From Candidatus Kerfeldbacteria bacterium (GTDB taxonomy: Bacteria > Patescibacteriota > Patescibacteriia > Veblenbacterales > UBA10138), in assembly GCA_016217875.1 (NCBI GenBank), contig JACRFN010000042.1, forward strand, positions 1 to 49,002: 49,002 nucleotides of DNA, given 5' to 3'. The notes beneath the pieces are model-generated. The model saw only the letters and a list, made by a program, of their open reading frames with translations. It had not been told where the DNA came from and did no database searches. This document shows, in pieces, positions 2,158-13,232 of this stretch; within the stretch, counting starts at the first letter, position 1; each line of letters opens with the position of its first letter. A program made the position numbers and the translations under genes.

Positions 2158-4023
2158 TCAACTTAATACCGTTCGAGGGTGCCTGTCAATAATAACGTCA
2201 TCGGGCAAAACGCGCCACAGAGCCTCGGGGTTAAAACCTCGCCCGTAACGTAAGAGCAGATGGAACCTGTAGCGACCCCTGACTTGCTTATAATAGTCAG
2301 GATAAGGCCCAACCAGCTTGGCTTGAGCTTTGAGTTTGGGGGCAATTATATTATAAACTGATCGAGCTTGCCTTAAGGCTTCATCTTCGAGTGGTGACTG
2401 AACCGTAAAACGGACTAGGCTGGCAAAGGGAGGATAGTTGAACATTTTTCTTTGCTCGAGTTCGGCGGCATAAAAAATCTTTGGGCTACGGGCCATCAGG
2501 CTTCGCCAAATGTAATGATCTGGACGATAAGTTTGTACGACCACTTGCCTGGCACCGCAAGTGACAAAGTGACGTGCAGTTTGCCAAACCTGTTCCGCCT
2601 GTTGCCACTCAGGCACCGCCAACTCGGCGTCAGGCAAAACCATGGCCAAAAGCCCAAAGGTGCTGAAGTCAAGATAACGCCAAGCGGCCCTGCTGCCAAT
2701 AACTAGCTGGGCTGACTTAGCCAAAGAGGCTCGGGCAGGGCTAACTGCGCCTTCCAAGACCAGCAGATTAAGCCTGGGCCAGGTGTGCGCTATTTCATCT
2801 TCCAGTTTAGACAAACCAGTGCCAAGATATTTAATATTGAGGCCCCGACAAGCCGGACAGGGCAACGGCAGGCGGCTCATCGTGCCGCAGTTGTAACAGG
2901 TGAGCTTATTATGCCTGGCCTCCCAGGCCATAGGCCGGGCGCACTTGGGACAATTAACCACGTAGCCGCAATCTCGGCAAATAACCGAAGTGGCGGTACC
3001 GCGGCGATTAAGATAAAGAAAAGCCCTTTGTCCCGAGTCAATGGTTTTTTGTAAAAGCTCTTGCAGTTCCGGTGCTAATATCTGCTTGGACCCGGTGTTC
3101 TGGGCGCCACTAAGATTAATTACCGCCACTGAGGCGGGCGGGCGGGGGCCTAATTTTTGCCAGGATAAATTCCCTTGTTGATAATCATGCCAAGTTACAA
3201 CCAAAGGAGCCGCTGAGATAAGGGCTAAGGACCCGCTCCACAACTTAGCTAACCACTTAGCTACTTCTAAAGCGTCATAACGGGGGTTTTGGTCAGACTG
3301 CTTATAGTTGTCACAGGCCGCCCCATCTACCACGATACCGCCTAAAGAACAGAAGGGTAAGAATAACGCCGCCCTGGTGCCGATGATTAACTGGACCCGC
3401 CCGTCTCTGATATTTTCCCAGGCTCGGCGCTTGTCTGTCAGCTTGGCCTCGGCTGAGTAAGTAGTAATGGTAAAAACTTTAGCCAAATGCTCGCACCAAT
3501 AAGCCATATCAGATATTTCCGGCACCAACAATAATAGTTGTTGGCGGCGTGCCGTCACGTGAGTAGCCAAAGCTTTAACTAAAGATAAACGTTTATCGGC
3601 TTGCTCCACCAAAACTGCCAAGGAGGAACGTTGCCTCGCCCCTTGAGACAGGCCGGCAATCTCTGCGTAGGCGGCCGGGGCAAAACGCCTATTGGGCAAG
3701 AATGGCACAGCCAAGCCTAGGGCCGAACCAAATGCCACGCCATAGTGATCAGCCACCTGACGCGCTAGAGACAGCTGCCTTGTAGTAATAAATTTTTTGG
3801 CCAGCTGAGCTGATAAAACTTTGAGCTGGGAGACAGGCACCCGGGTGCGCTGTTTAAGTCGCACTACGGCGCCGTTTACCATCCGCCCGCGGAACGGCAC
3901 CTGTACCAGATCGCCCACGGCCAACTCATCAGCCAGTATCCCGGGAACAAGGTAATCAAAAAAATGCACTCCCCGCGGTAGTCGTCGCAACAGTGCCACT
4001 TCGACCAAACGTGATCTGGGCAT
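2158..4023 (-). CDS. priA: Primosomal protein N' (PriA) homolog with degenerate ATPase motifs
   Basis: Zn-ribbon cysteines CRDCG..CPKC..CYNCG..CPAC, and core blocks LLVPEISD and IIGTRAALFLPF that align to the PriA helicase core. The Walker A and DEAH positions are not conserved (see finding). Confidence 0.8.
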   Translation of the reverse strand: MPRSRLVEVALLRRLPRGVHFFDYLVPGILADELAVGDLVQVPFRGRMVNGAVVRLKQRTRVPVSQLKVLSAQLAKKFITTRQLSLARQVADHYGVAFGSALGLAVPFLPNRRFAPAAYAEIAGLSQGARQRSSLAVLVEQADKRLSLVKALATHVTARRQQLLLLVPEISDMAYWCEHLAKVFTITTYSAEAKLTDKRRAWENIRDGRVQLIIGTRAALFLPFCSLGGIVVDGAACDNYKQSDQNPRYDALEVAKWLAKLWSGSLALISAAPLVVTWHDYQQGNLSWQKLGPRPPASVAVINLSGAQNTGSKQILAPELQELLQKTIDSGQRAFLYLNRRGTATSVICRDCGYVVNCPKCARPMAWEARHNKLTCYNCGTMSRLPLPCPACRGLNIKYLGTGLSKLEDEIAHTWPRLNLLVLEGAVSPARASLAKSAQLVIGSRAAWRYLDFSTFGLLAMVLPDAELAVPEWQQAEQVWQTARHFVTCGARQVVVQTYRPDHYIWRSLMARSPKIFYAAELEQRKMFNYPPFASLVRFTVQSPLEDEALRQARSVYNIIAPKLKAQAKLVGPYPDYYKQVRGRYRFHLLLRYGRGFNPEALWRVLPDDVIIDRHPRTVLS

Positions 4024-4973: not shown

Positions 4974-6368
4974 TTAAAAACTGCTAGCAATAGAAGGCCC
5001 CAGCTCGTGAATAGCCAACGCGTCATCAGTCGTAGTCATTATGTTTTTGAGTTCATAACCTAATTCAGTCAGCGCCTGCTCAGAGGTGAACGGTCGCCGT
5101 TGCTTATTGGAAATAAGGTAAACGGTGGGCTCTGTCTTGGAACGAACCAGCTCGCCCTCTTTAAACAAGACTGGAGTGCTGGTGGAATACTGCTCCAATT
5201 GTTGGGCACTGGCTTTGGTAAATTTACGCTTACCAAAGTTGGAAATTAGAATCTCTTTTGACCATAGAGGATGCTTAACGCCATCCCGCACCCAATAAAT
5301 GCCGCCGGTTTTGCGGTCCTGCAGCAGGGTGCCGAGCGGATAAATACTCTTGACGGTAACAGGCTCAGCTTCGCCATAATCAGCCAAGTCCTCTTGGGCG
5401 ACTTTGATAATTTCTTCCGGGTTTACCCCCACGCGGCGTAAGGCCTCCCGCGAAGCAAAGCCCCTGACAGTATCACCCACCACTAAGTAAACGGTGCCCC
5501 GCGGCGTGCGCAAGAAAGAATAATTGGAAAATTTTATCAGCCGCCCTTCCGGATATTTCAAAAGTTCGGTTTTATTAATGGTCAATACCCGATCAAACGA
5601 ATCATAGAGCGACAAATACACCTGACGGCTGGCGAACTTACGACGCTGGCCGGCTTCTATCAGCCAGACTTCTTTCTCCCCCTCAACATTCAACAGCGTA
5701 CCGTCAGGATAACTGCGGGTGAAGTACTTGTTCCAAACTGTCCACAATACCTGGTTACCATGCAAATGCGGCGTATAAGTATAAACGATGGCGGTAGCAC
5801 GATTGGCCGGCACTACGGTCAGACCGTCCACCACCTTGGCCAGGCCTGGCCCGAAGCCGGAAATAGTCCGGCCGGAGGACTCAAGTTGCGGCAGATAATA
5901 AAGCCTAATGCGCTTGGCGGCGTTATATACCTGGTTGTAAAATCCTTTAAATTTCTGAATCACGGGGTCGTTGACATCACAGCCGTCACAAACCGCGTAA
6001 CCAGTGGCCCAATCATAGCTAGAGTTACTGGGCGATGGATCTTCAATCAGGCTTTGCTCCTTTTGCAACAAAGCCAGCAGGAATTTGGGGCTGATCTGAA
6101 AATCCTGGGCGGTGCTGTATATTATCTGGTCGGCCCGCAGAGAAGTAATCGGATCTTTATAAGAAGCTAAAGTACTGCCCTTGGCTAAAAGAAAAGCCTG
6201 GATTTGCGCCAGGTTCAAAGAATTATAATCGAGCAAATCGTCGTCAGACAGAATATAATTCTGATCAAACTCGGCCTGGGCCAAAGCGGGCAGGCTGAAA
6301 AAGGGCTGAGCCAGCAACATAGCCAGCACTACTAGCATAAAAAACAAGCGTTTAACACGCTGAGTCAT
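4974..6368 (-). CDS. Secreted protein, possibly cell-wall associated or a hydrolase-like protein (tentative)
   Basis: An N-terminal signal-like hydrophobic segment ending in ALAQA. The block ISPKFLLALLQKEQSLI resembles blocks seen in peptidoglycan-active proteins. No catalytic motif could be confirmed. Confidence 0.5.
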   Translation of the reverse strand: MTQRVKRLFFMLVVLAMLLAQPFFSLPALAQAEFDQNYILSDDDLLDYNSLNLAQIQAFLLAKGSTLASYKDPITSLRADQIIYSTAQDFQISPKFLLALLQKEQSLIEDPSPSNSSYDWATGYAVCDGCDVNDPVIQKFKGFYNQVYNAAKRIRLYYLPQLESSGRTISGFGPGLAKVVDGLTVVPANRATAIVYTYTPHLHGNQVLWTVWNKYFTRSYPDGTLLNVEGEKEVWLIEAGQRRKFASRQVYLSLYDSFDRVLTINKTELLKYPEGRLIKFSNYSFLRTPRGTVYLVVGDTVRGFASREALRRVGVNPEEIIKVAQEDLADYGEAEPVTVKSIYPLGTLLQDRKTGGIYWVRDGVKHPLWSKEILISNFGKRKFTKASAQQLEQYSTSTPVLFKEGELVRSKTEPTVYLISNKQRRPFTSEQALTELGYELKNIMTTTDDALAIHELGPSIASSF

Positions 6369-6437
6369 GACGCTATTATATCACGGAACAGCCAGTAAGT
6401 GAAAAATAAAATCTTGCTTCCGGCAGCGGCGCCCGAG

Positions 6438-6465
6438 TTGACAAGATTTAACCCTGTGGTAAGTT
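6438..6465 (+). promoter_or_regulatory. Sigma-70-like promoter for the T-box leader
   Basis: TTGACA (6438-6443), a 16-nt spacer, then TAAGTT (6460-6465), about 30 nt upstream of Stem I. Confidence 0.5.
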
Positions 6466-6489
6466 GTTTCTAACAACCTTTACAGCGCC

Positions 6490-6832
6490 TAAAATCGTTG
6501 ACCAGGAAGAGTAGGCGAAGGTCGAGTCTAGCCCAGAGAGGGGAGGATAGTGCGATCTCCCTCTAGGCCGCTTCGCTGAATGGACCTGCGAGATGTAAGC
6601 CGAAATCATGCCGCTTCACGGCATGAGTGTAGTACTTGCCGGCCGTCCCCCGTAACCATGGGAAGCGAGGGTGTTGGTTGAACCACGTTCGACCAAAGCA
6701 CTCGCGAGTGGTCCGACGTAACGTCGGACAACAAAGGTGGTACCACGAAGGTTTGACCATACATTAAGGTTAAAGACCTCCGTCCTTTGATCAGCATGGC
6801 CTTGCCATGCTTTCTGAAGGACGGAGTTTTTT
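6490..6832 (+). promoter_or_regulatory. T-box riboswitch leader (transcription-termination type), specifier codon UGG (Trp)
   Basis: Stem I base CAGG (6503-6506) pairs with CCTG (6585-6588). The specifier loop has AAGAGTAG on the 5' side and T-GAA-TGG-A (6577-6584) on the 3' side. Also present: AGAGAG bulge (6535-6540), distal loop ATAGTGCGA (6547-6555), and Stem III (6711-6729). The T-box sequence AAAGGTGGTACCACG lies at 6733-6747 with a UGGUACC bulge. The antiterminator 3' strand (6777-6789) overlaps the terminator 5' strand. The terminator is CTCCGTCCTT/AAGGACGGAG followed by T6 (6778-6832). Confidence 0.85.
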
Positions 6833-6897
6833 GATAGCCCTTTAACAATTTAGAAAACAACAAACAACGAATTATGAAAACATAAAGGAGAGTCATC

Positions 6898-9462
6898 ATG
6901 AAAAAAAATGATGTATCACAACTAGTAACCCTTACGCTGGCTGAAGCCATTACAGAGAGTGCTAGCCGGATTGGAAGTAAGGTACTCAGGTTAGCTCAGC
7001 TCGCGAAACAAGGCTACGCGGTTCCGCCAGCTGTCATACTGCCCGCTGATACTGTGGCCACGCTCTGGCGTGGTGATAGGGTGGAAGTGCCAAATTGCGT
7101 TCTGGACGTCACTTGGCAGCGCTGTCAGAAGCTCCTCGGTCCCGGACCGCTGATAGTTAGGAGTAGTGGTCGTGAAGATGGTGAGACCTTATCCTTCGCT
7201 GGGCAGTTTGACTCGGTGCCAAACGTTGGCAATAAAGACGAACTACAGCGTGCACTAATAGCATGCATTTCATCATCTCGCTCTAGTGGTTCACGTCTCT
7301 ATAACGAGGCAGCTGGTACCATAGAGGTGGGTAATTCGTTTGCCGTTATGATTATGCCGCAGCGTCAGTGTGTTTTTGCCGGCATTATGTTTTCCCAGAT
7401 GCACTTGAACGGCGACGGTACGCGATTCGTCGTAGTACAGCTGGCGCGTGGGGCTAACTTTGGTCTCACGAGCGGTACGGAGGTCGGTGATATTGTTTAT
7501 CTGGAGCGAGAAACCGGGCGTGTAGTTTGGAGTATTCCCGATAATCGTACAGTGTCGGAGTGCAGCGACTCGAAACTTGCCGAACTCTACCGTCTAGCCT
7601 GCAATTTGGAAAGATTTTTCGGATTTGGGGTCGATGTGGAGTGGGGCACTTTACCCGATGGTACCGTGGAAATTTTCCAGACTCGTCCGATTACCACTAA
7701 GGGTGGGGCTAGTTCATCAGATTTGCGTTTAAGGGTGATTCTTCAGACGTTAAGCAAGATGAGTGATTCAGTTAATAAGCTGCACCAGTGTGGTGTTAAT
7801 GTCGGTGGTAACTACTGGAGCGACCAGAATATTGCCGAGCTCATTACTGATCACCCTTCTCGTATGGCTTTCGGGGTGTTTACCCACATATTTGCCCATG
7901 GCCAAGGCGCGATACGTACTGGCCGAAACCAAATGGGGTATGACATCGGACAGGAACTGGAGGAAGGGTTCTTTGAGCTCATTGGTGGTCGGCCACGTTG
8001 CAGTATTGCCCATGACGCTCTGACGTATCGTATTGATGGTATATCACTGGAAGACTACGCCGTAGGCTTTGTCGGCAGGTACTTAGCAAGTATTACTAAC
8101 GATATCCAGCTGGCTAACTACCCGGAAGTGGTCCTGTATGATCAGAATCCGTCGCTTCAGTCCCTAATTAAGGAGTTTGGCGAAGAGAAGGGGATGATTT
8201 ATGCGGCGTGCTATGATACATTCTTTACCAATATCCGTGACTTGGAAACGAGTATAGCAGAGGAATTCACTGGTTCGTTTGAGCCTGGGTTTCGGAGTTA
8301 CATGGATGAACGGCGTCGGGCGGTTGCCAGCTTAGTGGCAGGCTCCAACACGACCGATTTGGTGACGGTCAGTAAGGAAATTCTGGAGCATCTCCGAACG
8401 GTCAGCTGTGTTATGTTCGTGAAGGTCGCCCGACTCGGTTTCTTCGCTTATGCTCGTTTACGCCGTAGGCTTGAAGGCGCTTTTGGAGAAGCTGAAGGCC
8501 GCTCTCGACTCGATCAAATGACAGCGGGCTTAGAGGATGACGCCTCAATGCTCTTCAATGTACGTTTGGCAGATTTTCGGGACGGCAGAATAAGTCTAAG
8601 CCAACTACTTGATGAGTTCGGGCACTTGGGTCCAAATGAACTTGAGATTGCAAATCCGCGATACCGCAATCACGTCAATCTCATTGAACAGCTCGCGGCT
8701 AGCATCCAAGGTAATCCAGCAAGTGAACTCCGTCACCGTGCAAGTCAAGCTAGCCAGGTTACGCAGGAAACAGTAACGGCATTTGACGCCGAAGGTGCGC
8801 AAGAACTACAGCGCGATCTGGCTGTTGCGCGACGTTACTTGGCCTTACGGGAACGAGTTAAGTACTTCTATCTCATGGAGTATGACTGCTTCCGCCAGGT
8901 TTTGACCCACTTGACCGGGCTCCTCGGTATTGAAGAATACCTTATCTTTGAACTCGATCCGCGAGAGCTAAATCTTGTGGTAAGTGATCCCGCTGGGGCA
9001 ATTTCGCTCATGCGTGATCGTTACCAGGAGCGTACTCTGGTATACCATATGTATGTTCCACCAGTTCTTTCACAAGAGAACGTGGGGGCTATCGGTAGAG
9101 AGTCGTACGATCCGGAAGCCAAAGTGCTGATGGGTATCGGAGTGACTACACTGGTAACTACTGGCAGGGCCATTGTGGTGCTTGACCCGCAGGATACGGA
9201 TAAGATCTCACAGCTTGTGCCGGGATGTGTTCTAGTCACTAAGACAACTGATCCGACATGGGCTCCCATTATCGCAGCTGTTGGGGGCAATGGAGCATTG
9301 GTTACTGAAATTGGTGGACCGCTGGCTCACGGCGCTATTGTTGCTCGTGATTTGGGTATCGCCTGTGTGCAGAACGTTCCCGGCGTCACCAAGCGCTTCA
9401 GAACCGGAGACCTCATTCAGGTTGACGGTAAACACGGGACAGTAACTCTCGTGGAGGGGTAG
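6898..9462 (+). CDS. PEP-utilizing-family phosphotransferase with rifampin-phosphotransferase-like architecture (N-terminal ATP-grasp, large central domain, C-terminal swivel-His domain)
   Basis: RBS AAGGAG lies 7 nt upstream. The N-terminal block is GSKVLRLAQLAKQGYAVPP..RSSGREDGETLSFAGQFDSV (PPDK_N type). The C-terminal block is TTDPTWAPII..EIGGPLAHGAIVARDLGIACV (mobile phospho-His domain). At 854 aa it has no C-terminal PEP/pyruvate TIM-barrel domain. Confidence 0.8.
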   Translation: MKKNDVSQLVTLTLAEAITESASRIGSKVLRLAQLAKQGYAVPPAVILPADTVATLWRGDRVEVPNCVLDVTWQRCQKLLGPGPLIVRSSGREDGETLSFAGQFDSVPNVGNKDELQRALIACISSSRSSGSRLYNEAAGTIEVGNSFAVMIMPQRQCVFAGIMFSQMHLNGDGTRFVVVQLARGANFGLTSGTEVGDIVYLERETGRVVWSIPDNRTVSECSDSKLAELYRLACNLERFFGFGVDVEWGTLPDGTVEIFQTRPITTKGGASSSDLRLRVILQTLSKMSDSVNKLHQCGVNVGGNYWSDQNIAELITDHPSRMAFGVFTHIFAHGQGAIRTGRNQMGYDIGQELEEGFFELIGGRPRCSIAHDALTYRIDGISLEDYAVGFVGRYLASITNDIQLANYPEVVLYDQNPSLQSLIKEFGEEKGMIYAACYDTFFTNIRDLETSIAEEFTGSFEPGFRSYMDERRRAVASLVAGSNTTDLVTVSKEILEHLRTVSCVMFVKVARLGFFAYARLRRRLEGAFGEAEGRSRLDQMTAGLEDDASMLFNVRLADFRDGRISLSQLLDEFGHLGPNELEIANPRYRNHVNLIEQLAASIQGNPASELRHRASQASQVTQETVTAFDAEGAQELQRDLAVARRYLALRERVKYFYLMEYDCFRQVLTHLTGLLGIEEYLIFELDPRELNLVVSDPAGAISLMRDRYQERTLVYHMYVPPVLSQENVGAIGRESYDPEAKVLMGIGVTTLVTTGRAIVVLDPQDTDKISQLVPGCVLVTKTTDPTWAPIIAAVGGNGALVTEIGGPLAHGAIVARDLGIACVQNVPGVTKRFRTGDLIQVDGKHGTVTLVEG

Positions 9463-9501
9463 CTATGGCGTGGTAGCTTAGTACAAAAAGAATAACATCA
9501 A

Positions 9502-9535
9502 AGAGGGAGTTATAACACATAGCCCCCTCTTTTTT
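9502..9535 (+). terminator. Intrinsic terminator after the 854-aa gene
   Basis: Stem AGAGGG (9502-9507) pairs with CCCTCT (9525-9530), followed by TTTTT. Confidence 0.55.
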
Positions 9536-9588
9536 AATATGTTGTTTTTTGATACCATTGACATAACATACCTACCCAAAAGCATCAT

Positions 9589-10579: not shown

Positions 10580-11590
10580 ATGCGCCTGTTTATCGGTTTG
10601 GAACTGCCACCTGCCCTGCGCCTGGAGATTGAGCGTTTAAAAACCTCGTTTGAGTCCTTGGGTTATATCCGCGGCAAGTGGGTGGAGGTTTATAATCTTC
10701 ATCTGACTCTGGGGTTTTTGGGCGAGGTGGGGGAGGAGCTATTGACTAAACTTACATACTCTTTGGAGCAGGTAGCGGCCACTGTTCCGGCCTTTAAAAC
10801 AAAGCTTACGGGACTCGTTGGCATACCGCCGCGCCAGCCGCGTATCCTGGCTTTAGCCTCTGACGCTAAAGGGTCGTTCTACGCCCTGCAACAAAAACTT
10901 ACCTTGGCCTGCTCTAAGGTAGGTCTAAACTTGTCAGCCAAAGCGACACACCTGACTTTGGTGAGACTAAAGGTCCCGCTATACAAAATGCCGCCTTCGG
11001 CCTGGAAACCAGCTGACCTCTTTGTGGCCCAATTTAGTCTTATGCAAAGTACTTTAACCCCAAAAGGGCCTGTTTATAAGCCCCTTAGAGCCTTTAAATT
11101 GGCCCTAGGAGCCCAGCAGACTAAATTTCGGCCTAGTGTAGCTGTTTGCGTAATAAATCCCCAAAATGAGGTTATTTTAATCTGGCGCAGTGAAAACCGC
11201 CCCCATGACCTGGGCTTCCCCCAAGGCGGCATTAACCCTGGTGAAACTGCCGAGGCAGCAGCCAAACGTGAACTTAAAGAAGAGCTTGGTCTGGAGCAAG
11301 TTACGGTGCTTGGGGTACGGGATCGCATTTACACTTACCGTTGGCCCAAGGGTTTGATCAAATATGGCAAGGATGCCGACAAACGCGGCTACTTGGGCCA
11401 GGAACAAAGCCTGGTTATTGTCCGCCTGAAAGAACTTAGGCCTGAGCTTAAACCCGACCCGCTGGAAGCCGCTGTCGTACGTTGGGTGCCGCTAGACAAA
11501 TTGCTGGCCAGCTTAAAACCCAAGCGCCGAGCCTTAGGACGTTTAGTTATGGTAGAATTAAACAAGCTAGGAATAAGCCCTAAACCTTAA
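10580..11590 (+). CDS. Fusion protein: 2H phosphoesterase (ThpR/LigT-like) N-terminal domain plus Nudix hydrolase C-terminal domain
   Basis: Two HxT motifs (NLHLTLGFLG and ATHLTLVRL) in the first ~180 aa. A Nudix box GGINPGETAEAAAKRELKEELGL lies in the C-terminal half. Confidence 0.75.
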   Translation: MRLFIGLELPPALRLEIERLKTSFESLGYIRGKWVEVYNLHLTLGFLGEVGEELLTKLTYSLEQVAATVPAFKTKLTGLVGIPPRQPRILALASDAKGSFYALQQKLTLACSKVGLNLSAKATHLTLVRLKVPLYKMPPSAWKPADLFVAQFSLMQSTLTPKGPVYKPLRAFKLALGAQQTKFRPSVAVCVINPQNEVILIWRSENRPHDLGFPQGGINPGETAEAAAKRELKEELGLEQVTVLGVRDRIYTYRWPKGLIKYGKDADKRGYLGQEQSLVIVRLKELRPELKPDPLEAAVVRWVPLDKLLASLKPKRRALGRLVMVELNKLGISPKP

Positions 11591-11780: not shown

Positions 11781-13232
11781 ATGGTTCGTGTTCGTTTCGC
11801 CCCATCACCGACCGGCGAGCTCCACATTGGTGGAGCCAGAACCGCTTTGTATAATTATCTTTTTGCCAAACAGCAAGGCGGACAATTTATTATCCGCATT
11901 GAAGACACTGACCAGGAACGGTTTGTAGCCGGCAGTCTGGAGCGCATTCTCCAAGGACTCAAATGGCTGGGTCTTACTTGGGAAGAGGGGCCTGACGTCG
12001 GCGGCAGCAACGGTCCCTATGTTCAATCTGAGCGCCTGTCCATTTACCAAGAACAGGCTCGCGAGTTGGTGAAGAAGGGCAGCGCCTACTATTGTTTTTG
12101 CTCTACTGAGCGTTTGGGGGAACTGAGAAAATCACAAGAAGCGCAAAAACTTCCCACCCGTTACGACCGCGCTTGTTTTAATTTAGACGCCGAGGAGGTG
12201 GCGGCCCGCTTGGCTAGGGGAGAGAAGGCCACCATCCGGCTCAAAATCCCAGGCGGTACTACTCAGTTCACCGATTTAGTCCACGGACTGATAAAAGTAG
12301 CCAATAACACGCTCGACGACCAGGTGCTGTTAAAGTCGGATGGTTTCCCCACTTATCACTTAGCCTGCGTGGTGGACGACCATTTGATGGGCATCAGCCA
12401 CATCATTCGCGGTGAAGAGTGGCTACCGTCGGCGCCGAAGCACGTTATACTTTACCAGGCCCTGGGTTGGGAACCGCCGCAATTTGCCCACCTGCCTAAC
12501 GTGCTTAATGAACAGCGCGCCAAACTTTCTAAACGTAAAGACGGGGAGGCGGTCTGGCTACAAACATACCAAAACCAAGGATACCTGCCTCAGGCCATGG
12601 TAAATTTTCTGGTGCTATTGGGTTGGCATCCCCAGGACGATAGAGAGATTTTTAGTCTAGCAGAGCTTAGCCAAATTTTTGAGCTGGAGCGTGTACAAAA
12701 AGGCGGAGCGATTTTCAATTTTAGAAAACTAAACTGGTTCAATGCCGAGTATATAAAAAAACTGCCGCTAGTTGAACTTAATCAACTGCTCCAGCCTTAC
12801 TATCAAAAAATCAATGGAGCAGAAGCAGCCAACAAAGACACGACTAAACTGACGGAGGTGCTACGTTCGCGTCTGGTCACCTTAGCAGACTCCATTGAAC
12901 AAGCTGGCTGGTATTTCGCCCAAGAACTTGCCTTAACTCCTGATTTGCTCACAACTAAAGGAAGCACGGCCGCCAAAGCCAAGGCGGCACAACTTGCGGC
13001 CACGGCCAGTTTAGCTGAAGTAGGGGAGTGGCAAATTACTGAACTAAAGCAAGCTATGGCCAAAATCAACTCGGCTGGAGAATTTACGCGCGGCGAACTG
13101 CTTTGGCCAGTGCGCGTGGCCCTTACTGGCCAGCGTCAATCACCTGATGTCTTTGAGGTGGCCTGGGCCTTGGGAAAAAACGAAACGCTTAAACGTTTAA
13201 ACTATGCGTCAAAGGTCTTGGCTGCCGAATAG
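11781..13232 (+). CDS. gltX: Glutamyl-tRNA synthetase
   Basis: RFAPSPTGELHIGGARTALYNY (HIGH region) and KLSKR (KMSKS-type), in a 483-aa protein. Confidence 0.92.
   Translation: MVRVRFAPSPTGELHIGGARTALYNYLFAKQQGGQFIIRIEDTDQERFVAGSLERILQGLKWLGLTWEEGPDVGGSNGPYVQSERLSIYQEQARELVKKGSAYYCFCSTERLGELRKSQEAQKLPTRYDRACFNLDAEEVAARLARGEKATIRLKIPGGTTQFTDLVHGLIKVANNTLDDQVLLKSDGFPTYHLACVVDDHLMGISHIIRGEEWLPSAPKHVILYQALGWEPPQFAHLPNVLNEQRAKLSKRKDGEAVWLQTYQNQGYLPQAMVNFLVLLGWHPQDDREIFSLAELSQIFELERVQKGGAIFNFRKLNWFNAEYIKKLPLVELNQLLQPYYQKINGAEAANKDTTKLTEVLRSRLVTLADSIEQAGWYFAQELALTPDLLTTKGSTAAKAKAAQLAATASLAEVGEWQITELKQAMAKINSAGEFTRGELLWPVRVALTGQRQSPDVFEVAWALGKNETLKRLNYASKVLAAE

Follow-up and report, generated by a model that had tools for sequence, protein, structure and literature searches.

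Class-I T-box leaders (Rfam RF00230), as described for tyrS, glyQS, and trpS of Bacillus, are composed of a Stem I with a K-turn and an S-turn AGUA/GAA specifier loop presenting a codon and a purine, an AG bulge and distal loop, Stem II, a Stem IIA/B pseudoknot, Stem III, a 14-nt T-box sequence that contains a UGGN bulge, and an intrinsic terminator competing with it. The same parts are found at positions 6438-6832 of a 49,002-nt stretch of a Candidatus Kerfeldbacteria genome (GenBank assembly GCA_016217875.1, contig JACRFN010000042.1, positions 1 to 49,002, forward strand; the whole stretch is called the window below), where they precede a gene for an 854-residue enzyme resembling rifampin phosphotransferase (RPH). 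This leader carries a tryptophan (Trp) specifier and differs from the Bacillus examples in its host, a member of the candidate phyla radiation (CPR), in three long insertions, and in its target, which is neither an aminoacyl-tRNA synthetase, nor a biosynthetic gene, nor a transporter. The explanation favoured here, with a probability of about 0.72, is that the locus comprises a predicted tRNA-Trp-responsive T-box switch and a dikinase/phosphatase module which belongs to a Trp regulon and serves Trp acquisition.

A Trp T-box on a gene that encodes neither a synthetase nor a biosynthetic enzyme is found in B. subtilis, in rtpA (yczA)-ycbK, together with an EamA-family protein, an arrangement that recalls one CPR locus (L050, below); however, a small anti-TRAP regulatory protein is involved there, whereas an 854-residue enzyme with a phosphatase partner is involved here. 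In E. coli, the trp genes are governed by the TrpR repressor and by attenuation through the trpL leader peptide. Orthologs of the window's gene that lack a T-box are accompanied by TrpR genes, an operator-like palindrome, or leader open reading frames (ORFs) with tandem Trp codons and terminators, in the manner of the E. coli regulon, but what is controlled is a kinase/phosphatase module, with or without trpS, and not trpEDCBA. As for the enzyme, RPH (PDB codes: 5hv1, 5fbs) has the same three-part order of ATP-grasp domain, helical substrate domain, and C-terminal swivel-His domain, and the catalytic His is kept; the CPR enzyme differs in its low identity to RPH (17-18%), its central motifs, its regulation by Trp, and its constant pairing with a phosphatase. 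HpeHI, CreHI, and PpsAB are swivel-His kinases homologous to RPH; their substrates are small aromatic compounds, phosphorylated with sub-micromolar Km, the phosphorylated intermediates undergo processing before a pathway phosphatase removes the phosphate, and RPH-like dikinases of this kind are regarded as scavenging kinases (PMC12167813). These are two-component, catabolic enzymes, whereas the CPR enzyme is a single chain under Trp control in a host with minimal metabolism.

The first-pass annotation of the window, made from the letters, had read a complete Trp T-box at 6438-6832 (+), and folding together with the Rfam structural alignment places every listed part where it had been read. A promoter-like site recognisable from the letters (6438-6465) has a -35 element TTGACA (6438-6443), a 16-nt spacer, and a TGn-extended -10 element TAAGTT (6460-6465); TTGACA recurs at an equal distance 5' of Stem I in four related leaders (L001, L005, L007, and L021). 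A simple consensus scan for promoters and terminators missed this promoter, with its weak -10 element, and likewise missed long-loop terminators. The RF00230 match extends over 6489-6790 and spans the full-length model (positions 1-219). Stem I (6494-6593), with a single-sequence fold of -30.8 kcal/mol, contains the K-turn (UGA and GAGA) flanking a 4-bp closing helix, in which CAGG (6503-6506) pairs with CCUG (6585-6588), as well as the specifier loop, AG bulge, and distal loop. Each side of the specifier internal loop has 7 nt: the 5' strand reads AAGAGUA and the 3' strand GAA-UGG-A. The codon slot of the Rfam alignment is filled by UGG (6581-6583), followed by A6584 and the closing helix, and no other triplet falls into the slot, which bears out the Trp specifier proposed from the letters. 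The AGAGAG bulge (6535-6540) aligns to the RF00230 element AGAGA, and the distal loop AUAGUGCGA (6547-6555) aligns to GGUGNRA.

Downstream of Stem I, the region of Stem II and the Stem IIA/B pseudoknot (6597-6662) includes the conserved CCGUAACCAUGGG at 6650-6662, within a consensus, CCGUAAYCAURG, that is kept in both types of CPR leader distinguished below. The Stem III hairpin (6711-6729) is followed by the T-box sequence and antiterminator (6732-6790), whose minimum-energy fold (-16.7 kcal/mol) exposes exactly the 7-nt bulge UGGUACC (6738-6744) that had been predicted. The intrinsic terminator stem (6778-6826) with its U6 (6827-6832) has a folding energy of -32.5 kcal/mol (z = -7.4; equalled in stability by none of 200 shuffles), and its 5' arm overlaps the 3' strand of the antiterminator (6778-6790 in common), so that the two structures are mutually exclusive, again as first read. 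A ribosome-binding site, AAGGAG (6885-6890), lies 7 nt before the ATG at 6898. No ORF fits into the 65 nt between terminator and ATG (6833-6897), where an overlooked small Trp-related ORF had been considered as the possible real target.

In a local E-value scan the leader scored 91.4 bits on RF00230 (E = 1.2e-20), well outside what chance would produce, the gathering score being 93 bits, and a default Rfam scan of the whole window at gathering thresholds reported only a tRNA-Gln and did not call the T-box. The shortfall is due to the three long insertions, one within Stem II, one following the IIA/B pseudoknot, and one in the loop of the antiterminator, and the cutoff is an annotation convention rather than a structural criterion. 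The covariance-model check suggested in the first pass gave a mixed answer: the window's own leader remains 1.6 bits below the cutoff, but orthologous leaders exceed it, namely that of the closest ortholog (L033, 75% protein identity; 100.3 bits) and that of L007 (99.1 bits). The structural features expected of an RF00230 member are present, i.e. Stem I with K-turn and specifier followed by a purine, the distal platform, the antiterminator bulge, and the exclusive terminator. At the level of sequence and predicted folding, 6438-6832 is confirmed as a complete, genuine class-I transcriptional T-box leader with a Trp specifier.

Related leaders were collected from homolog loci (numbered with the prefix L) in species-representative genomes and metagenomes; thirty distinct Trp leaders were extracted, eight of type A were aligned, and the closing helix was scored in 27 (seven of type A and twenty of type B). 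Type A, to which the window belongs together with L001, L005, L007, L021, L033, L037, and L065, has a full Stem I, unlike the short-Stem-I forms, and reads GAA(N0-2)-UGG-N, with the UGG columns invariant in 8/8 aligned sequences. Its closing helix differs by lineage (CAGG/CCUG, CUUGG/CCAAG, CGGG/CCCG, CUGG/CCAG, and CCGAG/CUCGG), and its distal helix shows compensatory changes in five of six pairs by RNAalifold on a MAFFT alignment. That procedure recovered the distal helix alone on type-A Stem I, owing to misplaced indels, and single-sequence folds and pair tables were used instead; an automatic 5-bp helix search was likewise unsuited to the window, L001, L005, and L037, in which the true helix has 4 bp, and the type-A pairing was taken from the alignment. 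Across all 27 scored leaders UGG is invariant while the helix beside it covaries.

In type B, Stem I is truncated to the closing helix, one small hairpin, and a 5-nt bulge on the 3' side, (G/A)UUGG, followed by G, without a distal platform; UGG-G is invariant in 20/20, and each of the five closing pairs shows three to four pair types. Type-B leaders score about 41 bits on RF00230. They lack the distal platform, depend on Stem II plus the IIA/B pseudoknot, and present the specifier in a small bulge, and in these respects they resemble actinobacterial T-boxes with a short Stem I (the ileS type, ‘class II’ of TBDB), but they keep an intrinsic terminator and would act on transcription rather than by sequestering the ribosome-binding site. 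Such leaders are common in CPR, where they precede both the kinase module and trpB2-trpS operons; examples are L002 3650-3960, L003 3420-3770, L020 3631-3925, L040 2120-2470, and L111-L114 at about 6000-6640. In 26 distinct leaders the core GGUGG[U/C]ACC[G/A]CG is near-invariant, the terminator shows compensatory changes in 19 of 24 pairs, and a U-run follows in every case.

The reading register was controlled with a CPR T-box unrelated to the kinase (L044), in which the same register reads CGA (Arg). This T-box (560-830, core at 734) has a canonical long Stem I and is followed by a 156-residue GNAT acetyltransferase ORF (972-1442), a further target in CPR that is not an aminoacyl-tRNA synthetase. 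With respect to the partner tRNA, a T-box and a tRNA-Trp gene occur together in five loci. In these, the tRNA-Trp genes have the anticodon CCA and the discriminator base G73, and the variable base of the bulge opposite G73 is C (Watson-Crick) or U (wobble); across all thirty leaders it is never A or G. According to TBDB, the U:G73 wobble is used by 46% of Trp T-boxes. The pairing proposed in the first pass thus stands for related loci, while the window holds no tRNA-Trp gene of its own genome.

A further element of the 5' untranslated region, AGCCCTTTAACAA at 6836-6848, belongs to a family with a consensus of about GTTCTTTRAMAA. It lies between the attenuator terminator and the ribosome-binding site, 25-50 nt before the kinase start, at T-box and leader-peptide loci alike (the window, L001, L002, L008, L010, L013, L014, L017, L019, L049, L060, and L061), and it is not a promoter. 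Its presence in 18/39 upstream regions versus 7.8% of background is suggestive only, the regular expression having been defined after the data were seen.

The regulated gene (6898-9462, +) encodes an 854-residue protein with an N-terminal ATP-grasp domain (PPDK_N), a central helical domain, and a C-terminal swivel-His domain with His811. The first pass had named it as an ATP-grasp/swivel-His phosphotransferase outside the usual range of T-box targets, and this domain order is recovered by Pfam (PPDK_N, then PEP-utilizers at residues 775-847), by the AlphaFold2 model (pLDDT 86.6, pTM 0.77), and by Foldseek. Full-length Foldseek matches are RPH structures only (5hv1, E = 9e-31; 5fbs), with TM of about 0.5, 17-18% of residues being identical to the Listeria enzyme (RPH-Lm), and the ATP-grasp domain of the model also matches HpeI (9goj). 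By sequence, the best PDB matches are to Listeria rifampin phosphotransferase (E = 2e-25). His811, which lies in a GGPLAHGA motif, is invariant in 21 orthologs, and the conserved motifs of the central domain, e.g. PRCSIxHD, are unlike those of RPH.

The product is identical to a protein annotated as hypothetical in a Candidatus Kerfeldbacteria metagenome-assembled genome (MAG), and UniRef calls its orthologs ‘Phosphoenolpyruvate synthase’. All NCBIfam equivalogs score far below their cutoffs: 95-146 bits versus 740-970 for phosphoenolpyruvate (PEP) synthase and 126-143 versus 1300-1350 for PigC/RedH. An identity as PEP synthase is ruled out by the lack of any Pfam match to PEP-utilizers_C (PF02896) in the protein, by a swivel domain that is C-terminal rather than central, and by 95.5 bits on TIGR01418 versus a cutoff of 739.75; an identity as the RPH equivalog is ruled out by 134.6 bits on NF041857 versus 999, together with the low identity to RPH-Lm. 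Judged by these scores and by the predicted fold, the family is a CPR-restricted sister family of rifampin phosphotransferase and not an RPH. In three loci (L067 4094-4444; L068 and L069 4013-4363) a stand-alone ORF of about 117 residues comprises the C-terminal swivel-His domain only; it is 70-79% identical to window residues 721-853, has a tRNA-Gln on its 5' side and a His phosphatase on its 3' side, and could be a truncated gene or part of a split kinase.

The partner of the kinase in the window is a 228-residue histidine phosphatase (His_Phos_1, PF00300; 9589-10275, +). In 30 of the 37 non-redundant ortholog groups the kinase is followed, in the same orientation, by a His_Phos_1 gene of about 220 residues, and a low-molecular-weight (LMW) phosphatase (PF01451) accompanies or replaces it in nine groups, being fused to the kinase in P0063. 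Overall, one or the other phosphatase is present in 37/37 ortholog groups, compared with 1/27 outgroup homologs. The catalytic residues R10, H11, R75, E105, and H173 of His_Phos_1 are invariant in 17 orthologs. In a PDB profile search its nearest solved relative was a phosphoserine phosphatase of the His-phosphatase type (4IJ5, E = 1e-5). Between the two genes of the window lies a hairpin with a U-run (9500-9538, +; -14.9 kcal/mol, z = -4.2); a hairpin with U5 is found in 17 of 38 kinase-phosphatase spacers, including this one, and other spacers have only 10 nt.

Orthologs with 35-75% identity occur nearly always in CPR of the Parcubacteria/ABY1 type (Kerfeld-, Buchanan-, Magasanik-, Falkow-, Doudna-, Taylor-, and Sungbacteria). 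With a profile of the T-box core, leaders were found 5' of the gene in most ortholog loci and none was found 5' of distant homologs (at most 33% identity). After clustering at 90% identity, 36 ortholog groups had enough upstream sequence; a T-box is present in twenty of them, which answers the first-pass suggestion to look for such leaders upstream of homologs, and a TrpR gene in ten, so that T-box or TrpR is found in 30/36; L015 has TrpR plus a T-box located just past the distance cutoff. At least one Trp-linked element (T-box, TrpR, trpS, or tRNA-Trp) occurs in 33/36 groups versus 0/22 outgroup homologs. The kinase is adjoined by trpS (above the TIGR00233 cutoff) in twelve groups and by tRNA-Trp(CCA) in ten, with other tRNAs in only five, and neither linkage is seen in the outgroup. 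These sequence comparisons support the view that the link between the kinase and the Trp T-box is not a chance juxtaposition and is conserved across many CPR lineages.

Other genes share the unit in particular lineages. In L040 the order is T-box, TrpB2 (NF009057, 738 bits versus a cutoff of 366), kinase, and phosphatase, and the adjacency of TrpB2 and kinase is also seen in one deposited MAG. In L050 an EamA transporter lies between T-box and kinase; in L065 this place is taken by an AstE/AspA-like deacylase, which is found 3' in several other loci, and in L033 and L015 by an LMW phosphatase. TrpB2 is abundant in Patescibacteria, and T-box-preceded trpB2-trpS operons occur in other genomes.

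Several further genes were noted beside the kinase. An Asp/Glu-type racemase (TIGR00035 above cutoff; similar to cysteate racemase) stands directly 5' of the unit of leader peptide, kinase, and LMW phosphatase in L009 (3074-3766) and L011 (3080-3772). A 414-residue protein in which a chorismate-mutase-like domain (weak CM_2 match) is fused to a SAM methyltransferase is encoded repeatedly between trpS and the T-box/kinase (L003 2019-3263; L017 2002-3174; L019 8608-9747, -; L039 1307-2551; L060 8502-9647, -). In L006 a canonical TrpB-type ORF (7-1470, +) is located 5' of the kinase T-box, and a T-box-like core near 141, GGTGGAACCGCG, may mark a second Trp T-box on this contig, with trpB as its target.

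Where the T-box is missing, other Trp sensors are found. At loci without it a Trp_repressor gene (PF01371, E = 1e-18 to 1e-22) stands beside the kinase, and a palindrome, TGTACTAGTACA, in L014 (3803-3818) and L016 (about 3480-3500, 5' of trpR) resembles the operator core of E. coli TrpR and lies beside trpR genes that flank the kinase. Other palindromes in the trpR-kinase spacers were rejected as operators, several being terminator hairpins, and only TGTACTAGTACA of L014 and L016 is operator-like. The spacers of loci without a T-box, often those with TrpR, also contain predicted ribosome-mediated Trp attenuators, in which a trpL-like short ORF bearing tandem Trp codons precedes a hairpin and U-run: L008 (3238-3300), MKKLTQKINSMSWWAKLFLV; L004 (920-982), ..SVSWWSAF..; L014 (3816-3902), ..KSWWGIE..; L047 (3768-3857), ..IGWWSPL..; and, in loci with neither T-box nor TrpR, L009 (3763-3837), ..STWWALH.., and L049 (3758-3823), ..NITWWSLK... 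The pair WW occurs in 7/31 small ORFs of the spacers, compared with a background of 1.1% among 4182 small ORFs (P = 4e-8). Competing helices of the trpL type are present in L008, where a segment of the terminator is exactly reverse-complementary to the 3' arm of its first hairpin. A 10-codon mini-ORF directly 5' of the kinase, MWGGDPDDWW (three Trp in ten residues; L004 1267-1299, L045 243-275), may be a second Trp-sensing leader. Overall, as recognised from these sequence signatures, one orthologous gene is found under three mechanistically independent Trp-sensing devices, i.e. T-box, trpL-like leader peptide, and TrpR; the latter two belong to other loci, and neither of them occurs in the window itself.

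A possible mechanism can be described as follows. Transcription would start about 45 nt 5' of Stem I, which would offer UGG to the CCA anticodon of tRNA-Trp. When the tRNA-Trp is uncharged, its 3' NCCA end would pair with UGGU of the bulge and stabilise the antiterminator, leading to readthrough into the 854-residue gene; when it is charged, the -32.5 kcal/mol terminator would form and transcription would stop at U6. By homology, the enzyme would transfer the beta-phosphate of ATP to His811 and then to an acceptor, with the release of AMP and Pi. The kinase/phosphatase module may be part of a CPR Trp regulon together with trpB2-trpS, the EamA transporter, and the AstE-like deacylase, and the lineages would induce it under Trp limitation by T-box, trpL-like attenuator, and/or TrpR. 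We infer that the leader binds tRNA-Trp and that the module raises the supply of Trp.

What the kinase may phosphorylate can be suggested with low confidence only: a small-molecule co-substrate or precursor for Trp salvage. TrpB2 enzymes are described as O-phosphoserine-dependent, high-affinity scavengers of indole in the work of Busch et al. (2014) and Hettwer & Sterner (2002), as cited in PMC11917138. Because of the TrpB2 operon and the similarity of the phosphatase to phosphoserine phosphatase, the kinase could be a serine kinase that makes O-phospho-L-serine for TrpB2. Alternatively, by analogy with the handling of phenolics by HpeHI, CreHI, and PpsAB, a scavenged aromatic or indolic precursor could be phosphorylated, processed, and dephosphorylated, which would explain both the obligatory phosphatase and the LMW phosphatase of the aryl-phosphate type. 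There is about an even chance that the pair performs a Trp-acquisition step of one of these kinds that is so far undescribed, providing O-phosphoserine for TrpB2 or taking up a host-derived indolic or aromatic precursor via a transient phosphate handle removed by the phosphatase. An activation of Trp itself as an acyl phosphate for tRNA-Trp, in the manner of an aminoacyl-tRNA synthetase, would fit the usual class of T-box targets and the linkage to trpS and tRNA-Trp, but it is very unlikely.

Several observations weigh against a Trp-acquisition module under T-box control. The score of the window's leader lies below the curated RF00230 cutoff, and the tRNA pairing comes from related loci only. 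The terminator-like hairpin between kinase and phosphatase, present in the window and in about 45% of loci, means that the phosphatase may escape T-box control. Some ortholog-bearing MAG records are labelled Gammaproteobacteria or Bacteroidales, and these are probably mis-binned. TrpB2 is a direct neighbour of the kinase in one lineage only and greatly outnumbers the kinase family in CPR; therefore, the kinase is not an obligate partner of TrpB2. The 4IJ5 match of the phosphatase is weak, and a kinase and a phosphatase acting on the same compound would be futile, which counts against a simple pair of serine kinase and phosphoserine phosphatase.

A different role, in resistance or detoxification, would have the kinase inactivate a TrpRS-blocking or Trp-mimicking antibiotic or antimetabolite, with induction through the T-box as uncharged tRNA-Trp builds up. 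A T-box would be well suited to sensing TrpRS inhibition, trpS adjoins the kinase in twelve groups, and the sole full-length structural homologs are RPH structures; the RPH equivalog score is nevertheless far below its cutoff, TrpR in other lineages senses free Trp rather than TrpRS activity, operons are shared with TrpB2, a transporter, and a deacylase, the invariant phosphatase partner would reverse an inactivating phosphorylation, and the distribution in CPR is broad and vertical, not patchy. A role in resistance is thus improbable. Another role would be that of a regulatory switch, in which kinase and phosphatase reversibly phosphorylate a macromolecule of translation (e.g. TrpRS, tRNA-Trp, or an elongation factor) under Trp starvation. 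Regulatory cycles typically involve an antagonistic pair, phosphatases of protein phospho-His, phospho-Tyr, and phospho-Arg occur in the His_Phos_1 and LMW-PTP families, and the linkage to trpS (twelve groups) and tRNA-Trp (ten) is tight, compared with none in the outgroup. However, the characterised enzymes with the same domain order (RPH, HpeHI, CreHI, PpsAB, and PigC/RedH) all act on small molecules, the operon partners (TrpB2, racemase, deacylase, and transporter) are metabolic, and no swivel-His dikinase is known to act on protein or RNA, which leaves a regulatory cycle quite improbable as well.

That the gene encodes a true PEP synthase for gluconeogenesis or aromatic biosynthesis, with an incidental T-box, is hardly credible. 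The UniRef name of the orthologs and the PPDK_N and PEP-utilizers domains shared with PpsA would favour it, but, beyond the missing PEP-utilizers_C, the C-terminal position of the swivel domain, and the low TIGR01418 score, a bona fide PPDK with PEP-utilizers_C is separately present in one CPR locus (L114), and Trp-specific control is kept in 33/36 orthologs. Equally hard to credit is a leader that is a decayed or chance look-alike without regulatory function. The Rfam score under the gathering threshold would agree with it; against this, the match extends over the full-length model with E = 1.2e-20, every functional element is intact, the orthologous leaders of L033 and L007 pass the cutoff, Stem I and the terminator covary, and specifier and T-box sequence are invariant in up to 27 leaders. 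This covariation effectively refutes a look-alike. A small-molecule kinase induced by Trp limitation for Trp acquisition is ranked well above resistance, a regulatory kinase, PEP synthase, and a non-functional leader.

Two neighbours of the module in the window may be mentioned. Two genes 3' of the kinase and just before gltX (11781-13232), a 336-residue protein (10580-11590, +) joins a LigT-type 2',3'-cyclic phosphodiesterase to a NUDIX hydrolase similar to RNA pyrophosphohydrolase, an unusual fusion for the processing of RNA ends. On the other side, a 464-residue ORF without Pfam or NCBIfam match (4974-6368, -) is divergent from the T-box promoter.

Literature searches for T-boxes in CPR/Patescibacteria, for a T-box with rifampicin phosphotransferase, and for tryptophan synthase of Patescibacteria found nothing relevant. 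TrpR and unusual TrpRS/tRNA-Trp pairs were reported from CPR by Mukai et al. (2017; PMC5370408), whose paper describes neither T-boxes nor this kinase. The T-box itself is of a known kind; no prior description was found in the literature searched of its occurrence in CPR, a transcriptional form with a short Stem I that falls below the Rfam cutoff among them, of this unprecedented target class, to which the first pass had drawn attention, or of the convergent Trp control that defines a Trp-linked kinase/phosphatase module.

The T-box mechanism thus extends to CPR, where most leaders (type B, with their low RF00230 scores) escape routine annotation. Three unrelated Trp sensors, together with the clustering with trpS, tRNA-Trp, and TrpB2, provide a strong functional label for an uncharacterised gene, and metabolic reconstructions of CPR genomes could be led astray by the ‘phosphoenolpyruvate synthase’ label that it carries. 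Amino-acid biosynthesis is lacking in CPR bacteria, which raises the question of how amino acids reach them. A kinase/phosphatase pair induced by Trp limitation points to a concrete step of salvage or adaptation in these organisms. If this is true, ultra-reduced symbionts would keep a dedicated, triply regulated route of Trp salvage that has been hidden under the name of PEP synthase.

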